Source of the DNA: a virus
Strand: one strand, 5' to 3'
IMG/VR virus record: IMGVR_UViG_3300049482_000116
Coordinates: 4,142-68,141 of that record
Length of the DNA stretch: 64,000 bases
The translations under genes and the position numbers were made by a program. Of the stretch, positions 3,648 to 58,561 are shown one piece after another (within the stretch, counting starts at the first letter, position 1; every line of letters begins with the position of its first letter). Under the pieces are notes generated by a model that worked only from the letters and a program-made list of their open reading frames with translations, was not told the DNA's origin and made no database searches.

Positions 3648-4278
3648 TATCTATTTTGAACTTGATAGTTTAAAATACATTCTTGAAAACAGGGGCATCG
3701 AACCAGACGCGGTTACGATGATCCTACAAAAAGCTAGCGCAGACATAGATCGTGCCATGGCTAGTCACACTGAAGCAGCTATGCAGCTTGCCATCGAAGA
3801 TGGAGTACAGAAGCGATCAGCTGAATTTATCAATGAACTTAAGCTTAATCAAATATCGATGCAGCTTACAACGGACTCTGGAAATATGGACTTCTCTGAA
3901 CCCCCATTCCCTATGCTTCCGCGACTGCTACAGGGCGCTAAGCCCATAAAAGATGGTTCTGGGGTCTACAAAGTCATTCCTGTAGGTGAATCTTCTAGGA
4001 ATAGACCTAGGGTGTCTAGCAATATATATGATGCCTGGAAACAGGTCAATGCTGAGAGAATGGAAGCCTCAAGAGCTCAGCGCGAGCGAGTAACCCCTAA
4101 AAACTCTAAGGCTAAGTTTAGAACGGCTACAAGTAAACAGAATGCTAATACACAGTGGGTTCAACCAGCTAAAGATAAAGACTTCACAGATACTGTCCAG
4201 AGTATAAATAAAGAACTTAGTAGTTCTTTAGAAGATATTGTTCGCAACATTATAAGAGATTATGAAGAAAACTTTTAA
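3640..4278 (+). CDS. hypothetical protein, possibly neck/tail completion
   Basis: 212-aa ORF coupled to the previous gene; function from position only. Confidence 0.5.
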   Translation: MANIYFELDSLKYILENRGIEPDAVTMILQKASADIDRAMASHTEAAMQLAIEDGVQKRSAEFINELKLNQISMQLTTDSGNMDFSEPPFPMLPRLLQGAKPIKDGSGVYKVIPVGESSRNRPRVSSNIYDAWKQVNAERMEASRAQRERVTPKNSKAKFRTATSKQNANTQWVQPAKDKDFTDTVQSINKELSSSLEDIVRNIIRDYEENF

Positions 4279-11630: not shown

Positions 11631-12020
11631 ATGGACCTACCTAGTAAGGAATCTGCGTTTGATTTTGACCACACTGGAGTTGACACAAGTAAGAGATATG
11701 AAGGCCAGTTTAAGGTTCTATGTCTTCTAGACATGGGGCAAAAACATCGCCTTGAGTTAGAAAAAACTCGACTTCTTGGTAACTATCCTAATCCTACTGA
11801 TGGACTAGCTGGAATATCAATCATTCTCGCAAATCTACGTATCAAGATTATTGATGCACCAGAATGGTGGAAACAATCTAATGGCGGCTATGCTATTCAA
11901 GACGAAGATGCCTTAGTTGCTCTATACGATAAAGTTCTAGCAGCGGAGGCCGAATGGCGCAAACAGATGGTCGAGAAGGGCAAGAAGGCTCAAGCAGAAA
12001 CAGCGACCCCTCAGTCGTAG
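11631..12020 (+). CDS. tail assembly chaperone
   Basis: Between tube and tape measure; Y.G.F...IIDAPEWW pattern; GAGGAG SD. Confidence 0.65.
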   Translation: MDLPSKESAFDFDHTGVDTSKRYEGQFKVLCLLDMGQKHRLELEKTRLLGNYPNPTDGLAGISIILANLRIKIIDAPEWWKQSNGGYAIQDEDALVALYDKVLAAEAEWRKQMVEKGKKAQAETATPQS

Positions 12021-30249: not shown

Positions 30250-30287
30250 TAGAGTTTATAGTATAATCTAGGTTATTAGGAGTATGT

Positions 30288-33200
30288 GTGGCAGTATTAG
30301 GAAGACTATTAGTATCCAGCGCTGAGCGACTTGACTTACCCGACCTGCTTAGCATCGACAGCTATGGAGCTGGCGACTGGAAATATTTCGTACAGGGGCT
30401 AATTGGCCCTTCTAAGCCATACATAATGAAAGGCTTCGACATCATTGATCCACAGAACTCTATTGGAACTCAGTCATGTTCGATCCGTGTCGCTGATTCA
30501 ATCGTTCTATACCCAGGTTCTACCGCAGGTCCTTTCTATCATGGTCTTTCTGAAGGCAATACTAATGCTCTTCCTTTAGTCCCTGAACTTCGCAAAAATG
30601 CTGTTAACTATGTGTATTTAACATTCTCAACCTTTAATTCATCTGTAGATACCAGAGCATTTTGGGATCCAGATAAAGACGGCGGAGCTGGCGGTGAGTT
30701 TACTCAAGATGTAAATACTCAGTCTGTTCTTAAGGTAGAAGTAAACGTATCTACCGGTTCTTTTCCTGCAAATACTATTCCAGTTGCAAAAGTTACAGTA
30801 GGCGCTGTTGTTATCACAGCCATAGAAGATGCACGTGACTTAATGTTCCGCTTAGGCACAGGCGGAATCTCGCCTAATCCAAACAGTACATATAATTTTC
30901 GCTCTCTACCTTCGGCTCCCTATCAGAGAAATGAACCGCCGACAATCATGAGCAATCCGTCGGATCCAAATCCGTTTCAGGGTGCAGATAAAAATATTTT
31001 ATCTCTCAAGGAGTGGATGGACGTTGTAATGACTAGGTTAAAAGAACTTGGTGGCACAACGTTTTGGTATGAAGATACATCGACATTCTCTATAACCAGT
31101 ATTTTTACAGATGCTCTTACTACTACATATAAGTCTAAGGGTAAATACATTCATAGTTCTGCTACACCAGGTGATTTGACGTGGTCAGAAGATATCATTA
31201 TAAAGCAAACTGCTTCTCCTAAAGACACTATTATCAGGGATGGCGCAATAAGCCTTAATAATGAACAAGTAGCATATCTTCCACTAGCTAGAAATCAAAT
31301 TATCAATATCTTTGATGAAGCTGTAGCTTGGACAAATGGTCAACCATATATAAATACAATCGGTGGTTCTATCGGCAAGTTTGCTAATCTTACTAAGGGT
31401 GATTGGGTAAGAAAGGTAAGCGATGATGCAACTATGATGGTGCGCATAGAAGAATTCTATGATGCTATTAATTTAGGTGGTTCTGTTACCACAGCAGCAA
31501 ATGCTCGAAGTGTTCGCTTGAATGTGAACTACTTAGGAAGCACTTCACAAGAGCGCGCTAGATATGATCAAGGTGTTTATCTTTCTACTGATGTAGTTAT
31601 TTCTGATCGCGATGATCCAGCTATCAGTACTACTGGTGGTAACTTTTTATGGCTAGCTCTTCGTAGCGACACCATTCAGGACATTGCAGCTGTTGAGAGT
31701 TATGCAGTTTCTGGTACTATCAGTGTAGCAGATGGCTCACTGGTACAAGTGAATGCTACCGCGCATGGTCTTCTAGATGGAGACCGCATTACTATTACTG
31801 CGCCAGTTGCACAAGCTGGAACGTATTCTGTCGAGGTTGAAGACGCTAATACTTTCTTTTTTCAAAGTACAAATACGACTACTGGGGCGCTTACTGGATA
31901 CTTTGGTCTACTTACGACTACTGCACGAACAAACGGATACGGACTTCAACTTGAATCTGCTAATCACGGATTTGATTCTGGAGAAACCATACAGATTGCA
32001 GGTACAACTAATTTTGACGGAGCAGTTGTTATAAATGTGCGCTCTTCAACGCAAATTCAGTTTGCCGCATCAACTGTATTTGCTAATGAATCTTCTGGAA
32101 CTGCAACCTTAGCTCGCATTGATGCTCGTACTGAATCCGGTATCACTAAGATTGTTCAGGGTGAAACGATCAATATCGGAGAGGGTGATTCTGAGAACAT
32201 TCAGAGCTTTATTGGAATGAATTCGCTTGCTGAAACACACCCGCTTTATTTTGTTCCTGGTGGATTTGGAGCAATAAATGGTCAACAAAACTATAATTGT
32301 AGCGAAGTTGATAATCTAACTGAGCGTGCATCTAAGCTTACAGCCATGATGGCCAATAAAGCACAAGATAAAACAATCAAGTATTTAACTACTGCTAATA
32401 CAGTAATCAATACCATGAATGGCGCGGCTCAAGAGATCACATTTCAACCCGCAGCATCAACACTCACTATTCTTCAACCTAGTGCTGCTAGCAATGCTAC
32501 AACTACGCTACCAGATACAGCACCAGGTATTTCTCTTTTAGCTAATCAATCTGCTTATATCGTTATTGATAGGAACGCCGCCTCTACGCCAATTATAACT
32601 GTCAGCGACACTTCAGATGTACCTTTAGCTGAAAATGTGTTTGTTATTGCTTCTCGTCTTAGTGGAAATTCTATATATATATGGAATGGAACACAGGTAG
32701 TTGGCTCTTCACCACTAGTTCCTGGTGGAGCATCTCTTGTTAAGGTTCAGTATGCGGATCCAGTAAGTACAGTGCTCCCAACCGGTAATCCTGTCATAGT
32801 AGATGGCTATACAATAAATGCTGGTGATACAGTATTATTTTCTGCACTTTTATCTAATAATAATCGTGTTTACCAAGCGCTAGGGGTTGGAACAAACATA
32901 ACTGGTTGGAATGCCAGTTTTGCATTTAACGGTCTTCAAGATCCTATAGACGGCGATACGGTTATTGTGACCTCTGGTGATGGATTTGCAGATCAAGTTG
33001 GCAAGTTCACTGGAACAGAGTGGGTATTTAATGATAAGGTTCGTTACTTTAACGGTACAGATTATTGGGAACAATCTAATCTAGTTACCAGTACTCTCAA
33101 TGATAACTCAACTGGCAACGTGTTCACTGTCAACTATATTGGCTCTGAATATCAGGTAATTGATTATTCTATCTCACGAGGACTTACTAAAGAAACTGGA

Positions 33201-39079: not shown

Positions 39080-41821
39080 ATGGCAAATGAGATAAAATTT
39101 GGTAGTAAGGTAGTGTTTTTAGGTGGAACACCGATAACATTACCTTCGCAAGCTTCTGATCCTGGTAGTGCAGTCAACGGAGACATGTACTATAACTCTA
39201 CTTCAGACACCATAAGAGTATATCAAAGCGGTTCTTGGCAAAGTCTTGCAACAGGCGGAGCAGCTGCTAACACTACTTTGAGCAATCTTGGAACTACCGC
39301 TATTAACGCTGCTTTACTGCCAGCGTCTACAAACACAATAAACCTAGGTAATGGTAACCTTAAGTTTAACCAGATGTTTATCAATCAACTTCGCCGCGAT
39401 TCTGGTGAAGGTGTTACAGGACGAGCGGTTTTAGACGTTCAAAACTTCATTGCATATAATGGAACAGAAACGGCGATCTTTAAGTGGGATTCTTCTACTG
39501 TAGAGCTATCTACAATGACAGCTACTACTGTCCCCTATCTAGATGCTAACAAGCGCCTACAATCTAGTACAGTAACTCCAACTGAACTTGGATATCTTTC
39601 TGGTGTTACTTCTGCACTTCAGACACAATTAGGTAACAAGGCTGCCGATAACGTGGTTATCAAAAAAGATGGTTCTGTTGCGTATCTCGCGAACCAATCG
39701 ATGGGCGGTTTTAAACTAACAAGTCTCGCAGCAGGTAGTGCCAACGGTGATTCAGTTAGATATGAACAAGCTATTTTAGCTTCTGGCGTCAATGCATTTG
39801 CTGCCAACCAATCGATGGGTGGTTTTAAACTAACTAACCTTGCAGACGGTACTTTAGCACAGGATGCAGTTTCTAAGACGCAGATGGAAACTGCTGATGG
39901 TCTCAAGGTTTCTAAGTCTGGCGATACAATGTCAGGCAACCTGGCAATGGGCGGAAACCTTGTCACTGGACTGGGTGCTCCTGTTGGTGCTAACGATGCT
40001 GTTCGCAAAGCATATGCTGATGCTATTTCCGCTGGTTCAGTTTGGCTTAACCCGATCAATGATCCTGACCTTATCGATGACTCGCTAAGCACACCCCCTG
40101 GTTCACCAGTTGTAGGAGATACTTATATCGTAGCAGACACTGCTACAGGAGCTTGGGCAGGATTAGAAGGCTATGCTGTGTTCTGGAGCGGATCTGCCTG
40201 GGTTGATATCTTAGGTCGCGCTGTCATCGCCGGCGATCGTTTCGGCGTCAGCATGGAAACTCCGACAGCTGCAGCTGGCGGATTAGCTACTAAGGAAAAT
40301 AATATTGCTCAAATTGTGTCCCCAACTCCTGGAGCGATCACATACACATTTACTGCACCCATACTTGGACAAGCAGTGTTCGTATTTAATACTGCTTCCA
40401 CTCACTCTGGACACCAGTATAACTACAACGGAACTTCTTGGGTTGAATTCGGTGGAGCAAGCGCAATCACCCCTGGCGTTGGTCTATCATTCTCCGGTAA
40501 CGTATTAAATGTTAACCTTGGAGCAGGTATTGCTCAACTCCCTTCTGATGAAGTTGGTATTGATGTCCATACTTCCGGTGGACTATTTACTACAGTCGAC
40601 AACAGCACATCTAGTACTGTCACTGCAGCTCAACTAGCAGTTAAACTAGATGGTTCTACATTAAGTAAATCATCCTCAGGACTTAAAGTAGCTGCCCTTG
40701 GAATCACCAACTCAGAGATCAGTGCGTCTGCAGCTATTGTATATACTAAGTTAAATATCTCTAACAGCGTTGTAAATGCTGATATTGCTTCTGGAGCAAA
40801 TATTGCATTAAATAAGTTAGCTACTGTAACTGCAAGTCGCGCGCTTGTTTCAGATGGATCTGGATTCATATCAGCAGCTTCAGTTACAGCGACCGAGCTC
40901 TCGTATCTATCTGGTGCAACAAGTTCAATCCAGACTCAACTTGGAAACAAGGCTTCTACTACCTTAGACAACTTAGGTACTACAGCAATCAACACTAATC
41001 TGATTCCAAGTGCTACCAACTCGCATGATCTAGGTACTACGTCTGTTCGTTGGAAGGACTTATATTTAGCTGGAGCAATAACATCAGCTGGTGGAGCAAG
41101 TTTTGGCGCTGGAATCACTGCTACCGGAACAATCAGCTCTGGAGCCTATAACTTAACTGGTGATGCTCTTGAAGTTAGCGGTGGAGCAGTAAGAGTCAGC
41201 TCTTTTACGACTCCAATTACCGGTGTTGCTGCTGCCTCGTTATTCCCAGTAAGTCCAGCTGCTGTACCAGTGTCTATCTTTACACGAGACAACAGTACAA
41301 ATGACGCGGTTGCTTCTGGTGACGCACTTATCGAAACAGGAGATAAGACTGACGGTACTGGTAACTCTGGTTCTATCAAGCTTCAAACCGGGTCTTCAGT
41401 AGGCGGAACAAGGGGATCAATCGAACTTGATGCACGCGCTATCGCTCTTCGCGGCACGGTACAAAGATCAGATACTGCTGGTGGATCTAGTTTAATCGAA
41501 GAACAATATATCCATGCAACTACCCTTGCGGCCTCTCAGACTAATGCTATTGTAACAGCATTAAATTTTGCTCATGCTTCTTATGAAGGTGTAGAGATTA
41601 CTTACAAGATCAAGGAAGCTACCACTAACGCAGTCCGTACTGGTAAACTAAGTATCGCCACCAATGGGACCGACGTATCTATTGTTGACTCTTTTAATGA
41701 GACAGCTGATGTTGGGGTCACTTGGAGCGCAGTCGTCAATGGCGCTAATATCAACGTAAGGTACACCACTACTGCTAATACAAAAACTGCACGTATGGAT
41801 ATCAAGCGCTTTAAGGCTTAA
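39080..41821 (+). CDS. tail fibre protein with internal repeats
   Basis: KSGDTMSGNL, SMGGFKLT repeats, TELxYLSG repeats, DUF2793-like PPGSPVVGDTYIVA...GAWAG. Confidence 0.75.
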   Translation: MANEIKFGSKVVFLGGTPITLPSQASDPGSAVNGDMYYNSTSDTIRVYQSGSWQSLATGGAAANTTLSNLGTTAINAALLPASTNTINLGNGNLKFNQMFINQLRRDSGEGVTGRAVLDVQNFIAYNGTETAIFKWDSSTVELSTMTATTVPYLDANKRLQSSTVTPTELGYLSGVTSALQTQLGNKAADNVVIKKDGSVAYLANQSMGGFKLTSLAAGSANGDSVRYEQAILASGVNAFAANQSMGGFKLTNLADGTLAQDAVSKTQMETADGLKVSKSGDTMSGNLAMGGNLVTGLGAPVGANDAVRKAYADAISAGSVWLNPINDPDLIDDSLSTPPGSPVVGDTYIVADTATGAWAGLEGYAVFWSGSAWVDILGRAVIAGDRFGVSMETPTAAAGGLATKENNIAQIVSPTPGAITYTFTAPILGQAVFVFNTASTHSGHQYNYNGTSWVEFGGASAITPGVGLSFSGNVLNVNLGAGIAQLPSDEVGIDVHTSGGLFTTVDNSTSSTVTAAQLAVKLDGSTLSKSSSGLKVAALGITNSEISASAAIVYTKLNISNSVVNADIASGANIALNKLATVTASRALVSDGSGFISAASVTATELSYLSGATSSIQTQLGNKASTTLDNLGTTAINTNLIPSATNSHDLGTTSVRWKDLYLAGAITSAGGASFGAGITATGTISSGAYNLTGDALEVSGGAVRVSSFTTPITGVAAASLFPVSPAAVPVSIFTRDNSTNDAVASGDALIETGDKTDGTGNSGSIKLQTGSSVGGTRGSIELDARAIALRGTVQRSDTAGGSSLIEEQYIHATTLAASQTNAIVTALNFAHASYEGVEITYKIKEATTNAVRTGKLSIATNGTDVSIVDSFNETADVGVTWSAVVNGANINVRYTTTANTKTARMDIKRFKA
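39692..39834 (+). repeat. intragenic direct repeat, 29 bp x2
   Basis: aaccaatcgatggg(c/t)ggttttaaactaac at 39692 and 39806. Confidence 0.8.
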
Positions 41822-55247: not shown

Positions 55248-56639
55248 ATGCTTCCACACGCTCTAGTTAGTAATGACGCAATTACAATAACGGATCCTAG
55301 TCCTAGTATTGTTACGTGGGCTAATAAGAACTTAAGTTACACAGATAAATCTAAAGCTTACCAGTTACGCCGCATGTCTAAGAATGTATATCTTAGAAGT
55401 TCGCCTATTTATGCTAAACTTCAGGCCGAATCTAAGGGACAATTGCACAGTTTGGTAGATGATAAGCTCATCATTCCTAGTACATTCTTTAATGATATCA
55501 AAGATGAACTTGCTAAGTTTAGAATAACTGATTTAAGGAGCGAAACGGGTAAGAAGATTGTTGTTCCTTGGGTTAAAAAGCCCTTTGATCTTCGTCCATA
55601 TCAAGAAGAAGCAGTAGATCTGATGATGGCCAACTATCGTGGACTAATTAATCTTGCAACTGGACTAGGTAAGACACTTCTTGCTACACACCTGGTCCAG
55701 AGATACAAACGGCGTACACTTATAGTATGCCCATCTGAATCTGTAGCTAAACAGTTTTACAAACAGTTTGTAGATTGCTTTGGACAAAATAAGGTAGGTT
55801 TCTATGGCGGAGGCAAAAAGAAGATTAGTGACATTACAGTTGGTATCGCTGCTTCTATCACTAAAAATATTGGAGAGTTCAAGGATGCCGAACTCGGTCT
55901 CATTATATTTGATGAAACACATCACACCCCCGCTACCACGTTCTTTGATATCTCGAAAGGTCTGGCGTCGGTTGGCAAGATTTTTGGACTCACAGCTACA
56001 GACTATCGATCTGACGGAAAAGATGTGATGATCACTGGCGGATGTGGGCATGTCCTTATTAGACGTGACATCAAGTGGGGTGTAGAGAACGGATACCTTG
56101 CAGAACCAATCTTTATCGTCCGTAAAGTTCATACGACTGGTAAAGATCACAAAGATGATAAGTTAAAATCTTATAAGGCACACGTATTAAATGAACCACT
56201 AATGCTTCAGCAGATTGAGCAAGATGCAGCAAAGATGATGGCAGCAGGTAAATCTGTTCTTATCCTTGTTGATGAGGTTGCTCATGGAAAGATGCTCAGT
56301 GAAAATCTTAATATCCCGTTTGCTACCGGAATAGATGCAAAATCTCAAGAATATGTAGATCAGCTAAATGCTGGAAAAGTTAAGGGGTTAGTAGGTACCG
56401 ATGGAAAAATCGGAGAGGGTTCTGATACGCAGAACGTAGATGTTTTGATTCTAGCTAATTTCGTAGCATCTAAGGGGCCAGTTATTCAGGCAATAGGTCG
56501 AGGTCTACGGAAACAGGGCAGTAAAACGCACTGTTTGATTCTTGACTATATTCCACTAGGTTCAACTATGTTAAGTCGCCATGGAAACAACAGAGTTGAA
56601 ATGTATAAAGAAATTACTGAAAAAGTGAGGGTTTTATGA
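55248..56639 (+). CDS. superfamily 2 DNA helicase (UvsW-like)
   Basis: LRPYQ, LATGLGKT, FDETH, GLTAT, QAIGRGLR motifs; start moved to ATG 55248, 7 nt after TATAAT. Confidence 0.9.
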   Translation: MLPHALVSNDAITITDPSPSIVTWANKNLSYTDKSKAYQLRRMSKNVYLRSSPIYAKLQAESKGQLHSLVDDKLIIPSTFFNDIKDELAKFRITDLRSETGKKIVVPWVKKPFDLRPYQEEAVDLMMANYRGLINLATGLGKTLLATHLVQRYKRRTLIVCPSESVAKQFYKQFVDCFGQNKVGFYGGGKKKISDITVGIAASITKNIGEFKDAELGLIIFDETHHTPATTFFDISKGLASVGKIFGLTATDYRSDGKDVMITGGCGHVLIRRDIKWGVENGYLAEPIFIVRKVHTTGKDHKDDKLKSYKAHVLNEPLMLQQIEQDAAKMMAAGKSVLILVDEVAHGKMLSENLNIPFATGIDAKSQEYVDQLNAGKVKGLVGTDGKIGEGSDTQNVDVLILANFVASKGPVIQAIGRGLRKQGSKTHCLILDYIPLGSTMLSRHGNNRVEMYKEITEKVRVL

Positions 56640-56860
56640 ACTATATTAAGTCAAGAGATGAAGTCTTAAAAGAAGTTAAAGATAGAGTCTATTTAACAAT
56701 CAGCTACAACATGACTAACGTACATAATCAATCTATGTCTAATATAGGTTACACTATTCAAAATGCTATCGCAGATGGCATTACTGAAGGTATCAAGGTC
56801 TTAATGGAAAATACTTATACAGATCAACAGTTTGAACAGGATATTAAGCTTAGAACCTAG
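56636..56860 (+). CDS. hypothetical protein, 74 aa, TAG stop in frame with lysozyme
   Basis: GAGG SD; ATGA coupling to helicase. Confidence 0.65.
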   Translation: MNYIKSRDEVLKEVKDRVYLTISYNMTNVHNQSMSNIGYTIQNAIADGITEGIKVLMENTYTDQQFEQDIKLRT

Positions 56861-56872
56861 TATAATTAGGTT

Positions 56873-57409
56873 ATGGGCAGAAAAATCAGCAAGAACGGAT
56901 TAGAGCTAATTAAGGGTTTTGAAGGTTTATATTTAACAGCCTATCTAGACATAGTAGGTGTACCAACCATAGGTTTTGGTTGTACTGAAGGTGTCACTAA
57001 AGAAGATGTGGCTAATAAACGCACTATCACTGAGCAAGAAGCTATTGATATGATGATGAAAGAGTTAGATCGCTTCGAGAAGGGCGTTACTAAATACGTT
57101 ACCATCCCGATCAACCAGAATCAGTTCGATGCGCTTGTTTCATTCAGTTATAACGTAGGCCTTGGAGCTCTTCAGAAATCAACCCTATTGAAGATCCTGA
57201 ATGCAGGGGATATATCTGGAGCAGCAGAGCAGTTTCTTCGTTGGAATAAAGCCGGTGGAGTTGAAGTTAAGGGGCTTACTCGTAGACGTCAAGCAGAACG
57301 CTCACTATTTTTAAAATCTGAGACTCCTCCTGCCGGACTTCTTCCAGATGGCCCCAGCGAAGAAGAAATAAATAAAAAATTAGCTGATATTGAGAAAGAT
57401 TTGAAGTAG
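56873..57409 (+). CDS. lysozyme/endolysin (GH24)
   Basis: FEG...AYLD..GVPTIGFG catalytic E-D-T; NQNQFDALVSFSYNVG; GLTRRRQAE. Confidence 0.92.
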   Translation: MGRKISKNGLELIKGFEGLYLTAYLDIVGVPTIGFGCTEGVTKEDVANKRTITEQEAIDMMMKELDRFEKGVTKYVTIPINQNQFDALVSFSYNVGLGALQKSTLLKILNAGDISGAAEQFLRWNKAGGVEVKGLTRRRQAERSLFLKSETPPAGLLPDGPSEEEINKKLADIEKDLK

Positions 57410-57552
57410 AATATTAACTATGGGACTCTAGCTTAGCAAAAGAGTCCTACAACTTAAAAAGAAAGGGTAAAAATATGCATTAGGTTCATAAGCCTCCTTA
57501 AATCTTCTAGTTTGCCTCTGGATTTCAATAACCAAACTAACTAGGAGAACAT
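57407..57552 (+). promoter_or_regulatory. leader with promoter, two amber-interrupted minigenes and an SD-sequestering hairpin
   Basis: TAGAAT 57407-57412; ATG GGA CTC TAG...TAA (57420-57470); ATG CAT TAG GTT CAT AAG CCT CCT TAA (57475-57501); TCTTCTAGTT (57503-57512) complementary to AACTAGGAGA (57539-57548). Confidence 0.55.
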
Positions 57553-57996
57553 ATGAAAAATCAAATAAATCTATTAAAACAAGAGCTCAAGTCTCTTGCT
57601 AAAGAAATAACTACCAACCGAAAACTATATAAACAAGCTCAAAGAGAGGGTAAATCTCTTTGGAATATCCGCGTTCCTTCTTATGAATTCCGATATAAAC
57701 ATATCGTTTATTGTATGCTTAGAGGTCGAACCATTGAGCAGATTGAACGAAGTCATAAACCGGGCAAAGAGCCTAACATGCCATATATCGAAATGATGAT
57801 CAAGAAGGTGCAAGATGAAGCTTTACGTAGTAGTGAGATCGGATCTGTCGAAATCCCAACAAGCAGTTCAAGCGGGTCACGCTCTTGCGGAGCTCCTGCT
57901 GAAGCAACAACCGCGAAAGTGGAAGAATGGGACACTGGTTTACTTAAAGGTAAGGGATTTAGAATCTTTGGAGCTTTTAAAAGTCTCTTTAGATAA
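57553..57996 (+). CDS. hypothetical basic protein (YEFRYKHIVYCMLRGR motif)
   Basis: AGGAG SD; its C-terminal ~60 codons overlap the next gene. Confidence 0.75.
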   Translation: MKNQINLLKQELKSLAKEITTNRKLYKQAQREGKSLWNIRVPSYEFRYKHIVYCMLRGRTIEQIERSHKPGKEPNMPYIEMMIKKVQDEALRSSEIGSVEIPTSSSSGSRSCGAPAEATTAKVEEWDTGLLKGKGFRIFGAFKSLFR

Positions 57997-58123
57997 GTAT
58001 CAACAATATCCAGTACCATTTAAGGAGCCTGATATCGGAGATGAGATGACTGCCTTTGCACTTTTTGAGTGCACAGATCATGCAACTGCTCAATCTCTTT
58101 TGGATAACCTTCCTTTGATGTAA
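57815..58123 (+). CDS. peptidyl-tRNA hydrolase, PTH2-like fold
   Basis: KLYVVVRSDL..SQQAVQAGHA...LVYLKV...EPD.G...TA...L..LPLM matches the PTH2 family pattern; AAGG SD. Confidence 0.75.
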   Translation: MKLYVVVRSDLSKSQQAVQAGHALAELLLKQQPRKWKNGTLVYLKVRDLESLELLKVSLDKYQQYPVPFKEPDIGDEMTAFALFECTDHATAQSLLDNLPLM

Positions 58124-58138
58124 AAGTATAATATTGAT

Positions 58139-58212
58139 GCACCCGTAGCTCAGTGGCTGAGCAGGCGTCTCTAAAACGCTGGACGTGGGTTCGATCCCCA
58201 CCGGGTGCGCCA
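58139..58212 (+). tRNA. tRNA with CUA anticodon (amber suppressor)
   Basis: Acceptor GCACCCG/CGGGTGC, G73, encoded CCA; D arm GCTC/GAGC; anticodon stem GGCGT/ACGCT with loop CT-CTA-AA; T arm GTGGG-TTCGATC-CCCAC. Confidence 0.92.
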
Positions 58213-58219
58213 ATATTTT

Positions 58220-58561
58220 ATGCAAATCAATTCACAGTTATGTATATCAGGAAATTACAAGCGACAAAGATGCGTTCTTAGATTGTTAAGAAACATGTCA
58301 ACTAAGTATCACCATATAGTGGTTCATTTTACATTTAAAGAGCACAGACAATCCATATCACATGGTCTTATAGGTGATAAATTTACTGTCTTATTAGATA
58401 AGCTACCGATCGAGGCATTAGTTCATGCGGGCTCAATGACTTATTCATTTGACCAAAAACAACTTTCTAAGTTAAAAGCAGAATCTGATTTACGCTTCTT
58501 ATTAGATAAACTTCTTGCTAATCACCCTCATAGCTTACTATATAGGTATGAGTCTATATGA
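58220..58561 (+). CDS. hypothetical protein with LxxLL segments
   Basis: ATG at 58220 just after the tRNA; segments resemble the micro-ORFs at 1-673. Confidence 0.5.
   Translation: MQINSQLCISGNYKRQRCVLRLLRNMSTKYHHIVVHFTFKEHRQSISHGLIGDKFTVLLDKLPIEALVHAGSMTYSFDQKQLSKLKAESDLRFLLDKLLANHPHSLLYRYESI

Follow-up and report, generated by a model that had tools for sequence, protein, structure and literature searches.

Genomic context of the leader

The DNA analysed here, hereafter the window, is a 64,000-nucleotide (nt) stretch of IMG/VR record IMGVR_UViG_3300049482_000116 (positions 4,142 to 68,141), a phage-like genome of 68,141 bp and 41% G+C. Its endolysin gene is separated by a gap of 143 nt from the gene that follows it, which we call gene X, and X is followed in turn by a gene for a PTH2-like protein and by a gene for a tRNA with the anticodon CUA, tRNA(CUA). 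Our subject is the leader that occupies the gap. It contains a short upstream open reading frame (ORF), uORF2, which is interrupted by an in-frame amber codon (TAG, the gate codon) and ends in Pro-Pro-stop, and a hairpin that holds the Shine–Dalgarno (SD) sequence of X. Comparison with related phage loci suggests that this leader probably couples expression of X to the reading of UAG as a sense codon. The coordinates of all features are collected in Table 1.

Table 1. Features of the leader and its surroundings, in positions of the window (aa, amino acids; MFE, minimum free energy).
Feature	Position	Strand	Remarks
Endolysin gene	56873-57409		PF00959, E 6e-47; its stop codon TAG is the first three bases of TAGAAT
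TAGAAT, -10-like hexamer	57407-57412	+	With CTGATA at 17 nt spacing, score 9/12; putative promoter
uORF1, M G L TAG L S K R V L Q L K K K G TAA	57420-57470	+	Chance frame, not conserved
Remnant of a tRNA-like gene, 5' half only (acceptor 5' strand, D arm and beginning of the anticodon arm)	57421-57461	+	Alignment A3
Hairpin GGGACTCT/AGAGTCCT	57422-57429/57441-57448	+	Predicted in both the MFE and the centroid fold; relatives do not conserve it as a hairpin
SD-like AAAGGG of uORF2	57462-57467	+	7 nt before the ATG; AAGGAG or GGAGG at this place in homologous leaders
uORF2, ATG CAT TAG GTT CAT AAG CCT CCT TAA, M H (amber) V H K P P stop	57475-57501	+
Gate codon TAG	57481-57483	+	Followed by G (purine at +4)
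K-P-P-stop, AAG CCT CCT TAA, proposed arrest site	57490-57501	+	P site 57496-57498, A site TAA
Anti-SD arm TCTTCTAGTT	57503-57512	+	Starts at +7 nt relative to the P-site Pro codon (first base) and at +22 nt relative to the TAG
SD arm AACTAGGAGA	57539-57548	+	Contains AGGAG of gene X
Gene X, 147 aa	57553-57996	+	Conserved part about the first 95 aa; motif FRYKHIVYCMLRGR; alignment A1
PTH2-like gene, 102 aa	57815-58123	+	PF01981, E 8.8e-5, 23.1 bits (cut-off 23); PHROG 1866, 3668
AGTATAAT, -10-like element	58125-58132	+	6 nt before the tRNA 5' end
tRNA, anticodon CUA, CCA encoded	58139-58212	+	ARAGORN; Rfam, 63.5 bits; 16 bases after the PTH2-like gene

Conservation of uORF2

A preliminary description of the window had proposed uORF2 and its SD-like AAAGGG, and both were found exactly at the positions claimed. 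In all eight of the close relatives aligned (alignment A4), uORF2 reads M-x-TAG-[V/I]-x-[K/R]-P-P-TAA, with Pro codons that differ at the third position. The leader of locus L001 is ATG ACC TAG GTT TCT AAA CCG CCC TAA (MT-TAG-VSKPP-TAA) and that of L050 is ATG AGC TAG GTA TAC AAC AAG CCA CCA TAA (MS-TAG-VYNKPP-TAA). The Pro codons change from CCTCCT in the window to CCGCCC in L001 and CCACCA in L050, while the ATG, the TAG, the frame, [K]-P-P and the stop are all kept. Both loci also keep the gene order helicase, 74-aa ORF, endolysin, leader, X, PTH2-like gene, tRNA(CUA).

Searches with the PTH2-like protein (alignment A2) retrieved 17 and then 80 loci on viral contigs. When the 170 nt upstream of X were read by eye in 15 loci, every one held an SD-preceded uORF with one to three in-frame TAGs and a Pro-rich ending, seen as in-frame PP, RGPP, RAPP or RSP-stop after the TAG. 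A strict signature was then defined as an ATG, 0-8 codons, TAG, 1-12 codons without TAA or TGA, and CCNCCN, all in frame. Of the 62 unique leaders, 36 contain it; among the controls it turned up in 10 of 2074 stretches of 200 nt drawn at random from these loci and in 14 of 2480 dinucleotide-shuffled sequences. The signature is specific for its gate codon, as exchanging TAG for TGA or for TAA gives 0/62 leaders in each case. Relative to the nearest upstream TAG, CCNCCN lies in frame 40 times and in the other frames 13 and 6 times. A purine follows the gate TAG in 34 of the 36 leaders with the signature (G in 18, A in 16); a purine after UAG is the context most favourable to amber suppression. 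The stop is thereby in frame at a conserved position and the frame downstream of it is under peptide-level selection, as expected for read-through. Taken together, the comparisons indicate that uORF2 is a real reading frame, conserved as a peptide with an in-frame TAG.

Proline-rich endings

By their endings, the 62 leaders divide into [K/R]PP-stop (21 leaders, the class of the window), R[AGSD]PP (15), RSP-stop (3), other PP-stop (2) and none (21). The last class includes L080, L081, L083, L087, L090 and L093, in which RGPP or RAPP can be seen by eye after the TAGs; they escape the rule because their start codon is more than eight codons away or because they form the end of an ORF that begins further upstream. 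The class also takes in about a dozen distant loci in which nothing is seen. Arg is encoded in the leaders by CGT, CGC, CGG or AGA.

Among the cores described in the available text of Fujiwara et al., RGPP gives the most robust arrest, followed by RAPP, and RSPP and RDPP are partly permissive; RGPP, RAPP, RSPP and RDPP are also among the most depleted words in bacterial proteomes (PMC12992588). The residues that stand between R and PP in the leaders, A, G, S and D, are exactly this published permissive set. Together with the varied Arg codons, the set makes selection at the RNA level a poor explanation for the endings. Bacterial C-termini are likewise depleted of Pro-Pro-stop, with an odds ratio of 0.44, and the accessible part of a preprint cites it as one of the strongest inducers of stalling at termination (bioRxiv 10.1101/751305). 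By analogy, the 8-residue KPP-stop peptide of the window would be expected to stall the ribosome.

The SD-sequestering hairpin

The pairing of TCTTCTAGTT with AACTAGGAGA is as the preliminary description had it, with 10 bp, one of them G-U, and the AGGAG of the gene at 57553 in the 3' arm. The MFE fold of 57410-57570 (-29.0 kcal/mol, z -1.98, 11/200 shuffles as good) contains both this hairpin and the one within uORF1. The SD hairpin alone has a free energy of -11.7 kcal/mol (z -2.62, 2/200 shuffles as good), and deletion in silico of 57499-57511, the 13 nt after the Pro codons, abolishes it (-11.7 to -1.6 kcal/mol).

The same arrangement was recovered by folding related leaders one by one. 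In 38 leaders, the pairing probability of the 12 nt upstream of the X start was 0.70 for the native sequence vs. 0.51 when the upstream part was shuffled, the native value being higher in 36 of them (Wilcoxon p 1.6e-7), and a median of 97% of the SD pairing goes to the segment from -3 to +22 nt of the first Pro codon. In the 30 leaders ending in PP-stop, an arm combined with its own SD gives -12.8 kcal/mol and with swapped ones -7.9 kcal/mol (0/10000 permutations as good); the native partner ranks best in 13 of these leaders and among the top three in 19. All 30 have a paired SD. Measured from the first base of the P-site Pro codon, the partner arm begins at a median distance of 7 nt, and at no more than 15 nt in 23 leaders; the other seven are multi-TAG leaders in which the pattern stopped at the first PP. 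In 30/30 the arm begins more than 12 nt past the gate TAG. Covariation across homologous leaders, a check suggested in the preliminary description, is therefore seen in per-leader folding and in the swap test, and is not seen in an RNAalifold consensus (see below).

A ribosome covers 12-15 nt 3' of its P site. With the TAG in the A site and the P site at 57478, its edge would be at about 57490-57493, some 10 nt short of the anti-SD arm. With the P site at 57496-57498 and the TAA in the A site, the edge would be at about 57508-57511 and most of the arm would be covered. The leader thus combines a short ORF with its own SD, a predicted stall site within one footprint of the 5' arm of a hairpin, and a 3' arm that carries the downstream SD, which is the layout of a translational attenuator.

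A proposed attenuator induced by amber suppression

The observations point to an arrest-peptide translational attenuator with amber suppression as its inducer: the anatomy of the leader, its codon-level conservation, the specificity of the gate codon, a hairpin with co-varying arms and a fitting geometry, and a linked tRNA(CUA). We regard this as the probable function; its dynamic steps, from translation of uORF2 through read-through and stalling to the direction of the regulation, are inferred from sequence comparison, as are the roles of X and the hydrolase. uORF2 would be a translated leader peptide that reports the sense reading of UAG in the infected cell, with ribosomes starting at its own SD. 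Where release factor 1 (RF1) wins at the TAG of codon 3, the ribosome would leave after Met-His and the hairpin would remain closed; X would then be poorly initiated and the PTH2-like gene, whose start lies inside X, would probably be poorly translated too. Where tRNA(CUA) inserts an amino acid, the ribosome would read five more codons and pause at the TAA stop while Lys-Pro-Pro-tRNA occupies the P site. The downstream edge of the paused ribosome would cover most of the anti-SD arm, so that the SD of X would be freed and X and the PTH2-like protein would be translated.

The core of this scheme, a read-through of the TAG that leads to a pause at PP-stop and uncovers the SD of the gene at 57553, had been offered in the preliminary description as a conjecture. 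It gains support from the comparative evidence, since the TAG, the frame, Pro-Pro(-stop) and the SD arm recur in dozens of diverged phage loci, with synonymous codon changes, arms that co-vary with the SD, and an amber-suppressor tRNA in the same module. The part that did not stand is the pair of functional uORFs in tandem, because the first of them is absent from L050 and is part of a tRNA-like gene in L001 and L004.

Several observations weigh against the proposed attenuator. The strict signature fails in 26 of the 62 leaders; several of the failures are variants by eye, with RSP-stop endings or with a uORF start more than eight codons upstream, and about a dozen leaders, mostly the most distant matches, show nothing. 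All 62 are related by descent, so that the counts given above are not independent events. The arms are misaligned in a MAFFT alignment of eight close leaders, and for this reason the RNAalifold consensus (-1.02 kcal/mol) lacks the SD helix; the structural support accordingly comes from the per-sequence folding, swap and geometry tests. The core in the window, KPP-stop, is outside the experimentally tested RxPP cores. Pauses at PP can be relieved by elongation factor P (EF-P), and with this relief and a peptide of only eight residues the stalling may be weak. The tRNA(CUA) gene has a AGTATAAT box of its own 6 nt upstream, so the tRNA is probably made independently, and there is no obvious control of the tRNA by the leader. 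Finally, the genome otherwise follows the standard code, which leaves the retention of any suppressor unaccounted for.

Alternative readings of the leader

If the TAG were a plain stop, uORF2 would be a two-codon mini-ORF, and the conserved element would be an RNA, a CCUCC-like anti-SD with its hairpin, that mimics Pro-Pro codons. CCUCCU is complementary to AGGAG, and the PP codons themselves form the anti-SD arm in L059 (AGCCCTCCT/AGGAGGGCT) and L115 (CCTCCGT/ACGGAGG). We nevertheless consider this reading very unlikely: the third positions of the Pro codons vary to forms that are not anti-SD (CCGCCC, CCACCA, CCACCG), Arg codons alternate between CGN and AGA, the frame is kept (40:13:6), TGA or TAA is never the gate, and the residues that occur between R and PP (A, G, S and D) are those found permissive by experiment in the published account. 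Alternatively, the same anatomy could have the opposite sign or another output, with the stalled ribosome repressing X and the PTH2-like gene through mRNA cleavage, rescue by transfer-messenger RNA (tmRNA) or queuing, or acting on transcription. Pro-stop stalls are classic tmRNA substrates, as cited in the accessible part of bioRxiv 10.1101/751305, but the anti-SD arm is exactly where a stalled ribosome would melt the hairpin, and the SD hairpin is the conserved, co-varying element. A search of the intergenic region for an intrinsic terminator (hairpin and U-run) found none, which speaks against a transcriptional output; as a whole this alternative is distinctly improbable. A third reading concerns the input. 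RF1 and a tRNA compete for the gate codon, and the leader could sense the activity of RF1 (its depletion, inhibition or titration in infection) and not the phage tRNA, with near-cognate or suppressor read-through reaching PP-stop. In line with this, 22 of 81 loci have no tRNA(CUA) on the same strand within about 1.5 kb downstream, and L077, L078 and L105 are among them, yet have TAG-gated leaders. However, the flanks are short (L059, on the same contig as L096, has a tRNA(CUA) 2.5 kb downstream), the other 59 loci do have a tRNA(CUA) after the PTH2-like gene on the same strand (median 335 nt from the PTH2-like start), and the +4 purine in 34 of 36 leaders favours suppression by a tRNA. An RF1 sensor is thus unlikely, and an attenuator that responds to amber suppression remains the reading that we prefer.

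The remaining possibility concerns uORF1, which the preliminary description had read as a leaderless, amber-interrupted frame in tandem with uORF2, while allowing that it could be chance. Its letters and coordinates, the stem GGGACTCT/AGAGTCCT and the distance of 7 nt between TAGAAT and the ATG at 57420 are all as claimed, and other genes of the phage appear to be leaderless behind AGTATAAT. A functional uORF1 is nonetheless highly improbable, and the caveat was well placed. The frame is not conserved and has no Pro-rich ending, and L050 lacks a counterpart. In L001 and L004, the bases aligned with it (alignment A3: window 57421-57461, L001 3556-3634, L004 3532-3615) form a tRNA-like gene that scores 45 and 46.8 bits, respectively, with the Rfam tRNA model, and the TAG of uORF1 (57429-57431) corresponds to U8-A9-G10 of the tRNA, aligned with the universal tRNA motif TAGCTCAG. 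Since the aligned bases form a tRNA-like gene in these relatives, uORF1 and the GGGACTCT/AGAGTCCT stem are, judged from the alignment, by-products of a truncated tRNA-like gene and lie outside the sensor.

The tRNA-like gene lies between the endolysin gene and the next gene in L001-L004, the closest syntenic relatives found (endolysin identity to the window 69% for L001 and 57% for L002-L004). About 46 nt, comprising the T arm and the acceptor 3' strand, are deleted from the copy in the window. In the relatives the anticodon loop is oversized, with about 20 nt in L004 vs. the 7 expected, and the L001 copy encodes CCA. ARAGORN reports the gene as 'tRNA-??? (ta)' in L002-L004 and misses it in L001; neither ARAGORN nor Rfam called a tRNA at 57421-57461 in the window.

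Relation to known systems

The leader resembles the RAPP/RGPP arrest peptides (ApdA, ApdP and ApcA, with SecM as the paradigm) in that a short upstream ORF with a Pro-rich core is predicted to stall and to remodel an mRNA structure that hides an SD (PMC12992588, PMC10951233, PMC7897499, PMC10987492). The likeness extends to the core itself, as relatives of the window leader carry exactly RGPP, RAPP, RSPP and RDPP. The window leader lacks two features of that family, the core motif and the monitoring of protein localisation: its core is H-K-P-P-stop and not R-[A/G]-P-P (R-A-G-P in SecM), and its input is other than protein export. It also differs in its 8-residue peptide without a signal or membrane segment, in the in-frame UAG that gates the arrest site, in a KPP-stop that would give a termination pause and not an elongation arrest, and in being phage-borne and upstream of a tRNA hydrolase-like module instead of Sec/YidC genes.

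In the ermC/ermB, cat and cmlA leaders, a ribosome on an SD-bearing mini-ORF stalls on, or a few codons ahead of, the 5' arm of a hairpin and so releases the downstream SD. The present leader would likewise free a downstream SD by a stall on a mini-ORF. The inducer of the erm and cat leaders is an antibiotic in the exit tunnel, whereas the inducer proposed here is the decoding of a stop codon by a suppressor tRNA; the conserved TAG points to an input other than a ribosome-bound small molecule. The prfB gene for RF2 has an early in-frame UGA and regulates itself, with escape by +1 frameshifting within the main ORF. As in prfB, an early in-frame stop would sense the efficiency of its own decoding and feed back on a termination-related gene; unlike in prfB, escape would be by read-through in a separate leader, with a hairpin switch as output.

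A TAG has been put into the tna/trp leader peptide in the synthetic 'Uaa transcriptional switch', which is summarised in a review (PMC6412442, its ref. 107). According to that summary, the switch is engineered, relies on Rho/attenuator transcription termination and uses an orthogonal tRNA/synthetase pair. The window leader, in contrast, is natural and phage-encoded, and appears to act on translation initiation. Recoded phages have been described with 'code-change modules', in which a suppressor tRNA lies beside translation-related genes and near a lysis gene, and the idea that phages could respond to suppressor tRNAs is raised there (Borges et al., bioRxiv 10.1101/2021.08.26.457843). Those phages are TAG- or TGA-recoded, unlike the genome studied here. 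The word 'hydrolase' does not occur in that preprint, none of the passages covered (12 of 23 that matched) mentions a gated leader, and a full-text search of the literature, supplements aside, returned no natural TAG-gated leader and no link between a PTH2-like protein and a phage suppressor tRNA.

Phage papers repeatedly report amber-suppressor tRNAs without an identifiable target. Phage Summit is one such case in the accessible text of its description (PMC9022506), and XacN1 has two tRNA(CUA) genes for which, in the part of the paper available, no target was found (PMC5852040). The leader would give the amber-suppressor tRNA a conserved natural target, and the decoding state of a stop codon would be a new input for arrest-peptide switches. 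It also bears on how recoded phages time their change of genetic code, which is left open in the accessible text of Borges et al. As a natural cassette of 80 nt that would turn amber suppression into expression, it might serve as a reporter or controller for genetic-code expansion, for which the versions so far, as reviewed in PMC6412442, are engineered.

Gene X, the PTH2-like gene and tRNA(CUA)

Across loci, X carries the motif [FY]RxxHI.YC..RG (alignment A1) and is about 100 aa long in most of them. A profile of X matched 1795 cluster representatives at E<=1e-3. No Pfam family was assigned to it, with nothing below E 0.02 in 15 members, and a single-protein scan for X in viral contigs gave 26 pattern matches, none of which was confirmed. 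In all cases X is paired with or fused to a PTH2-fold enzyme. In the window, X extends for 180 nt into the PTH2-like gene in a different reading frame (57815-57996), and the start and SD of the latter lie inside X. The same arrangement, with a similar X tail (…KSLFR), is found in L050. Most loci have an X gene that stops no more than about 30 nt from the PTH2-like start, and a single continuous frame encodes both proteins in L001, L098, L120 and L122-L125. X therefore represents a large unannotated family paired with a PTH2-fold enzyme, and an unexplored piece of phage translation control.

The PTH2-like profile (A2) matched Pth2 chains of the PDB with E 0.003, and H22, D73 and T79 are invariant in the family. 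The X-PTH2 fusion that occurs naturally in L001 was modelled with AlphaFold2 from an alignment of 70 sequences, with a predicted local distance difference test score (pLDDT) of 94.8 and a predicted template modelling score (pTM) of 0.86. In the model, the X part forms a long helical hairpin and two short helices packed on the PTH2 domain. Foldseek matched the PTH2 domain to archaeal Pth2 (2zv3, 3erj, 1xty) and human Bit1 (1q7s) with probability 1.00 and template modelling scores (target) of 0.5-0.62, and also, with probability 1.00, to the DUF2000 protein 2gax; it gave no convincing match for the X domain. By profile and model, the gene at 57815-58123 is thus assigned to the PTH2 fold and family, with a predicted hydrolase activity.

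tRNA(CUA) is the only credible tRNA of the 68-kb genome and, by its anticodon, an amber suppressor. The tRNA-Ile that ARAGORN places at 40172-40256 falls within a 913-aa ORF, and Rfam gave no match there at the gathering threshold; it was treated as false. The order X, PTH2-like gene, tRNA(CUA) holds in most of the retrieved loci, and a tRNA(CUA) was found in 13 of 14 loci scanned. This constant pairing suggests that the X/PTH2-like pair acts on tRNA(CUA) or on ribosomes at UAG. Extending this, the leader, the X/PTH2-fold hydrolase and tRNA(CUA) could form a closed control loop, in which the leader would measure the sense reading of UAG and adjust the amount of hydrolase accordingly. The helical X would direct this enzyme to its target, either the suppressor tRNA in charged or peptidyl form or ribosomes caught at UAG, and the loop would hold suppression at a set point or flip it near lysis. 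We put this forward tentatively and think it doubtful in its complete form. A loop of this kind would, if real, be the first circuit in nature with both a sensor and an effector for stop-codon reassignment, and it would account for the 'orphan' amber suppressors kept by standard-code phages.

Distant relatives of these genes occur in other phages. TAG-recoded Lak megaphages (15 records) have PTH2-like homologues of 33-37% identity; a brief glance at the region upstream in Lak-B4 showed no leader. In Xanthomonas phage XacN1 (ORF364, L153) and Stenotrophomonas phage RAS14 (WAX21615, L154), ORFs that contain the PTH2-like protein are preceded by an in-frame ATG AAG TAG ACC upstream of the annotated start. 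The two share the post-TAG peptide T-[IL]-..-K-.-T-.-Q-T-.-G-Q-.-I-L-Q-H-G, and may carry an amber gate at codon 3 of the gene itself. The gene order of the module is shared by Mycobacterium phage IkeLoa (L155), a Bixzunavirus that can be cultivated: its genes 150-152 are a small gene, a peptidyl-tRNA hydrolase (as annotated) and tRNA-Pyl(cta). An SD-ATG-TTT-TAG-GTA uORF lies 45 nt before gene 150, spanned by the inverted repeat CTCATGT/ACATGAG, and has no Pro-Pro ending.

Promoter-like elements

The window contains five copies of AGTATAAT (at 30260, 55233, 56859, 58125 and 63381), all on the + strand and each just before a start. It stands 6-7 nt before the endolysin ATG at 56873, the likely helicase ATG at 55248 and the tRNA(CUA) 5' end at 58139, and 20 nt before the ATGs at 30288 and 63409. 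The copy number alone is not above chance, as 35 of 100 shuffles reach five. TAGTATAAT before the endolysin gene is common to L001, L004 and L050. AGTATAAT is probably the -10 element of the phage, which would make several of its transcripts leaderless. The TAGAAT upstream of uORF1 likewise precedes the tRNA-like gene in L001, with TATAAT in its place in L004, at a spacing of 5-9 nt; this old promoter may at most still start the leader transcript near 57419. A scan of the region for sigma-70 promoters was not above shuffles (7 sites vs. 13.9 expected).

Coding rules and relatives of the genome

ORFs of at least 100 aa in the standard code span 94.1% of the window, and reading TAG as sense raises this to 96.3%. 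Whole-genome recoding of TAG (code 15-like) was rejected, as the standard code already leaves the window 94.1% coding, with few in-frame TAG joins. Twelve of 64 ORFs end in TAG, and three of the twelve are in frame with the next gene, which is the level of chance; read-through fusions of the 74-aa ORF with the endolysin, and of two pairs outside the window, were rejected on this basis. A recoding candidate at position 11631 is a normal gene terminated by TAG. At 56858-56875, the 74-aa ORF ends with TAG, followed by TAT AAT TAG GTT ATG, and is in the endolysin frame through two TAGs. This shared frame looks accidental, since it is not kept in L001.

A blastn search with 56600-58300 against 50,697 phage records gave six records, none covering 80% of the query, and bacterial and archaeal genomes yielded only six loci, all in metagenome bins. 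The sequencing runs listed as containing the stretch include no RNA run. Contigs of runs X3-X5 cover parts of 57300-57700. Contigs of run X2 span the whole of this segment with two differences, both within gene X, and the leader is invariant.

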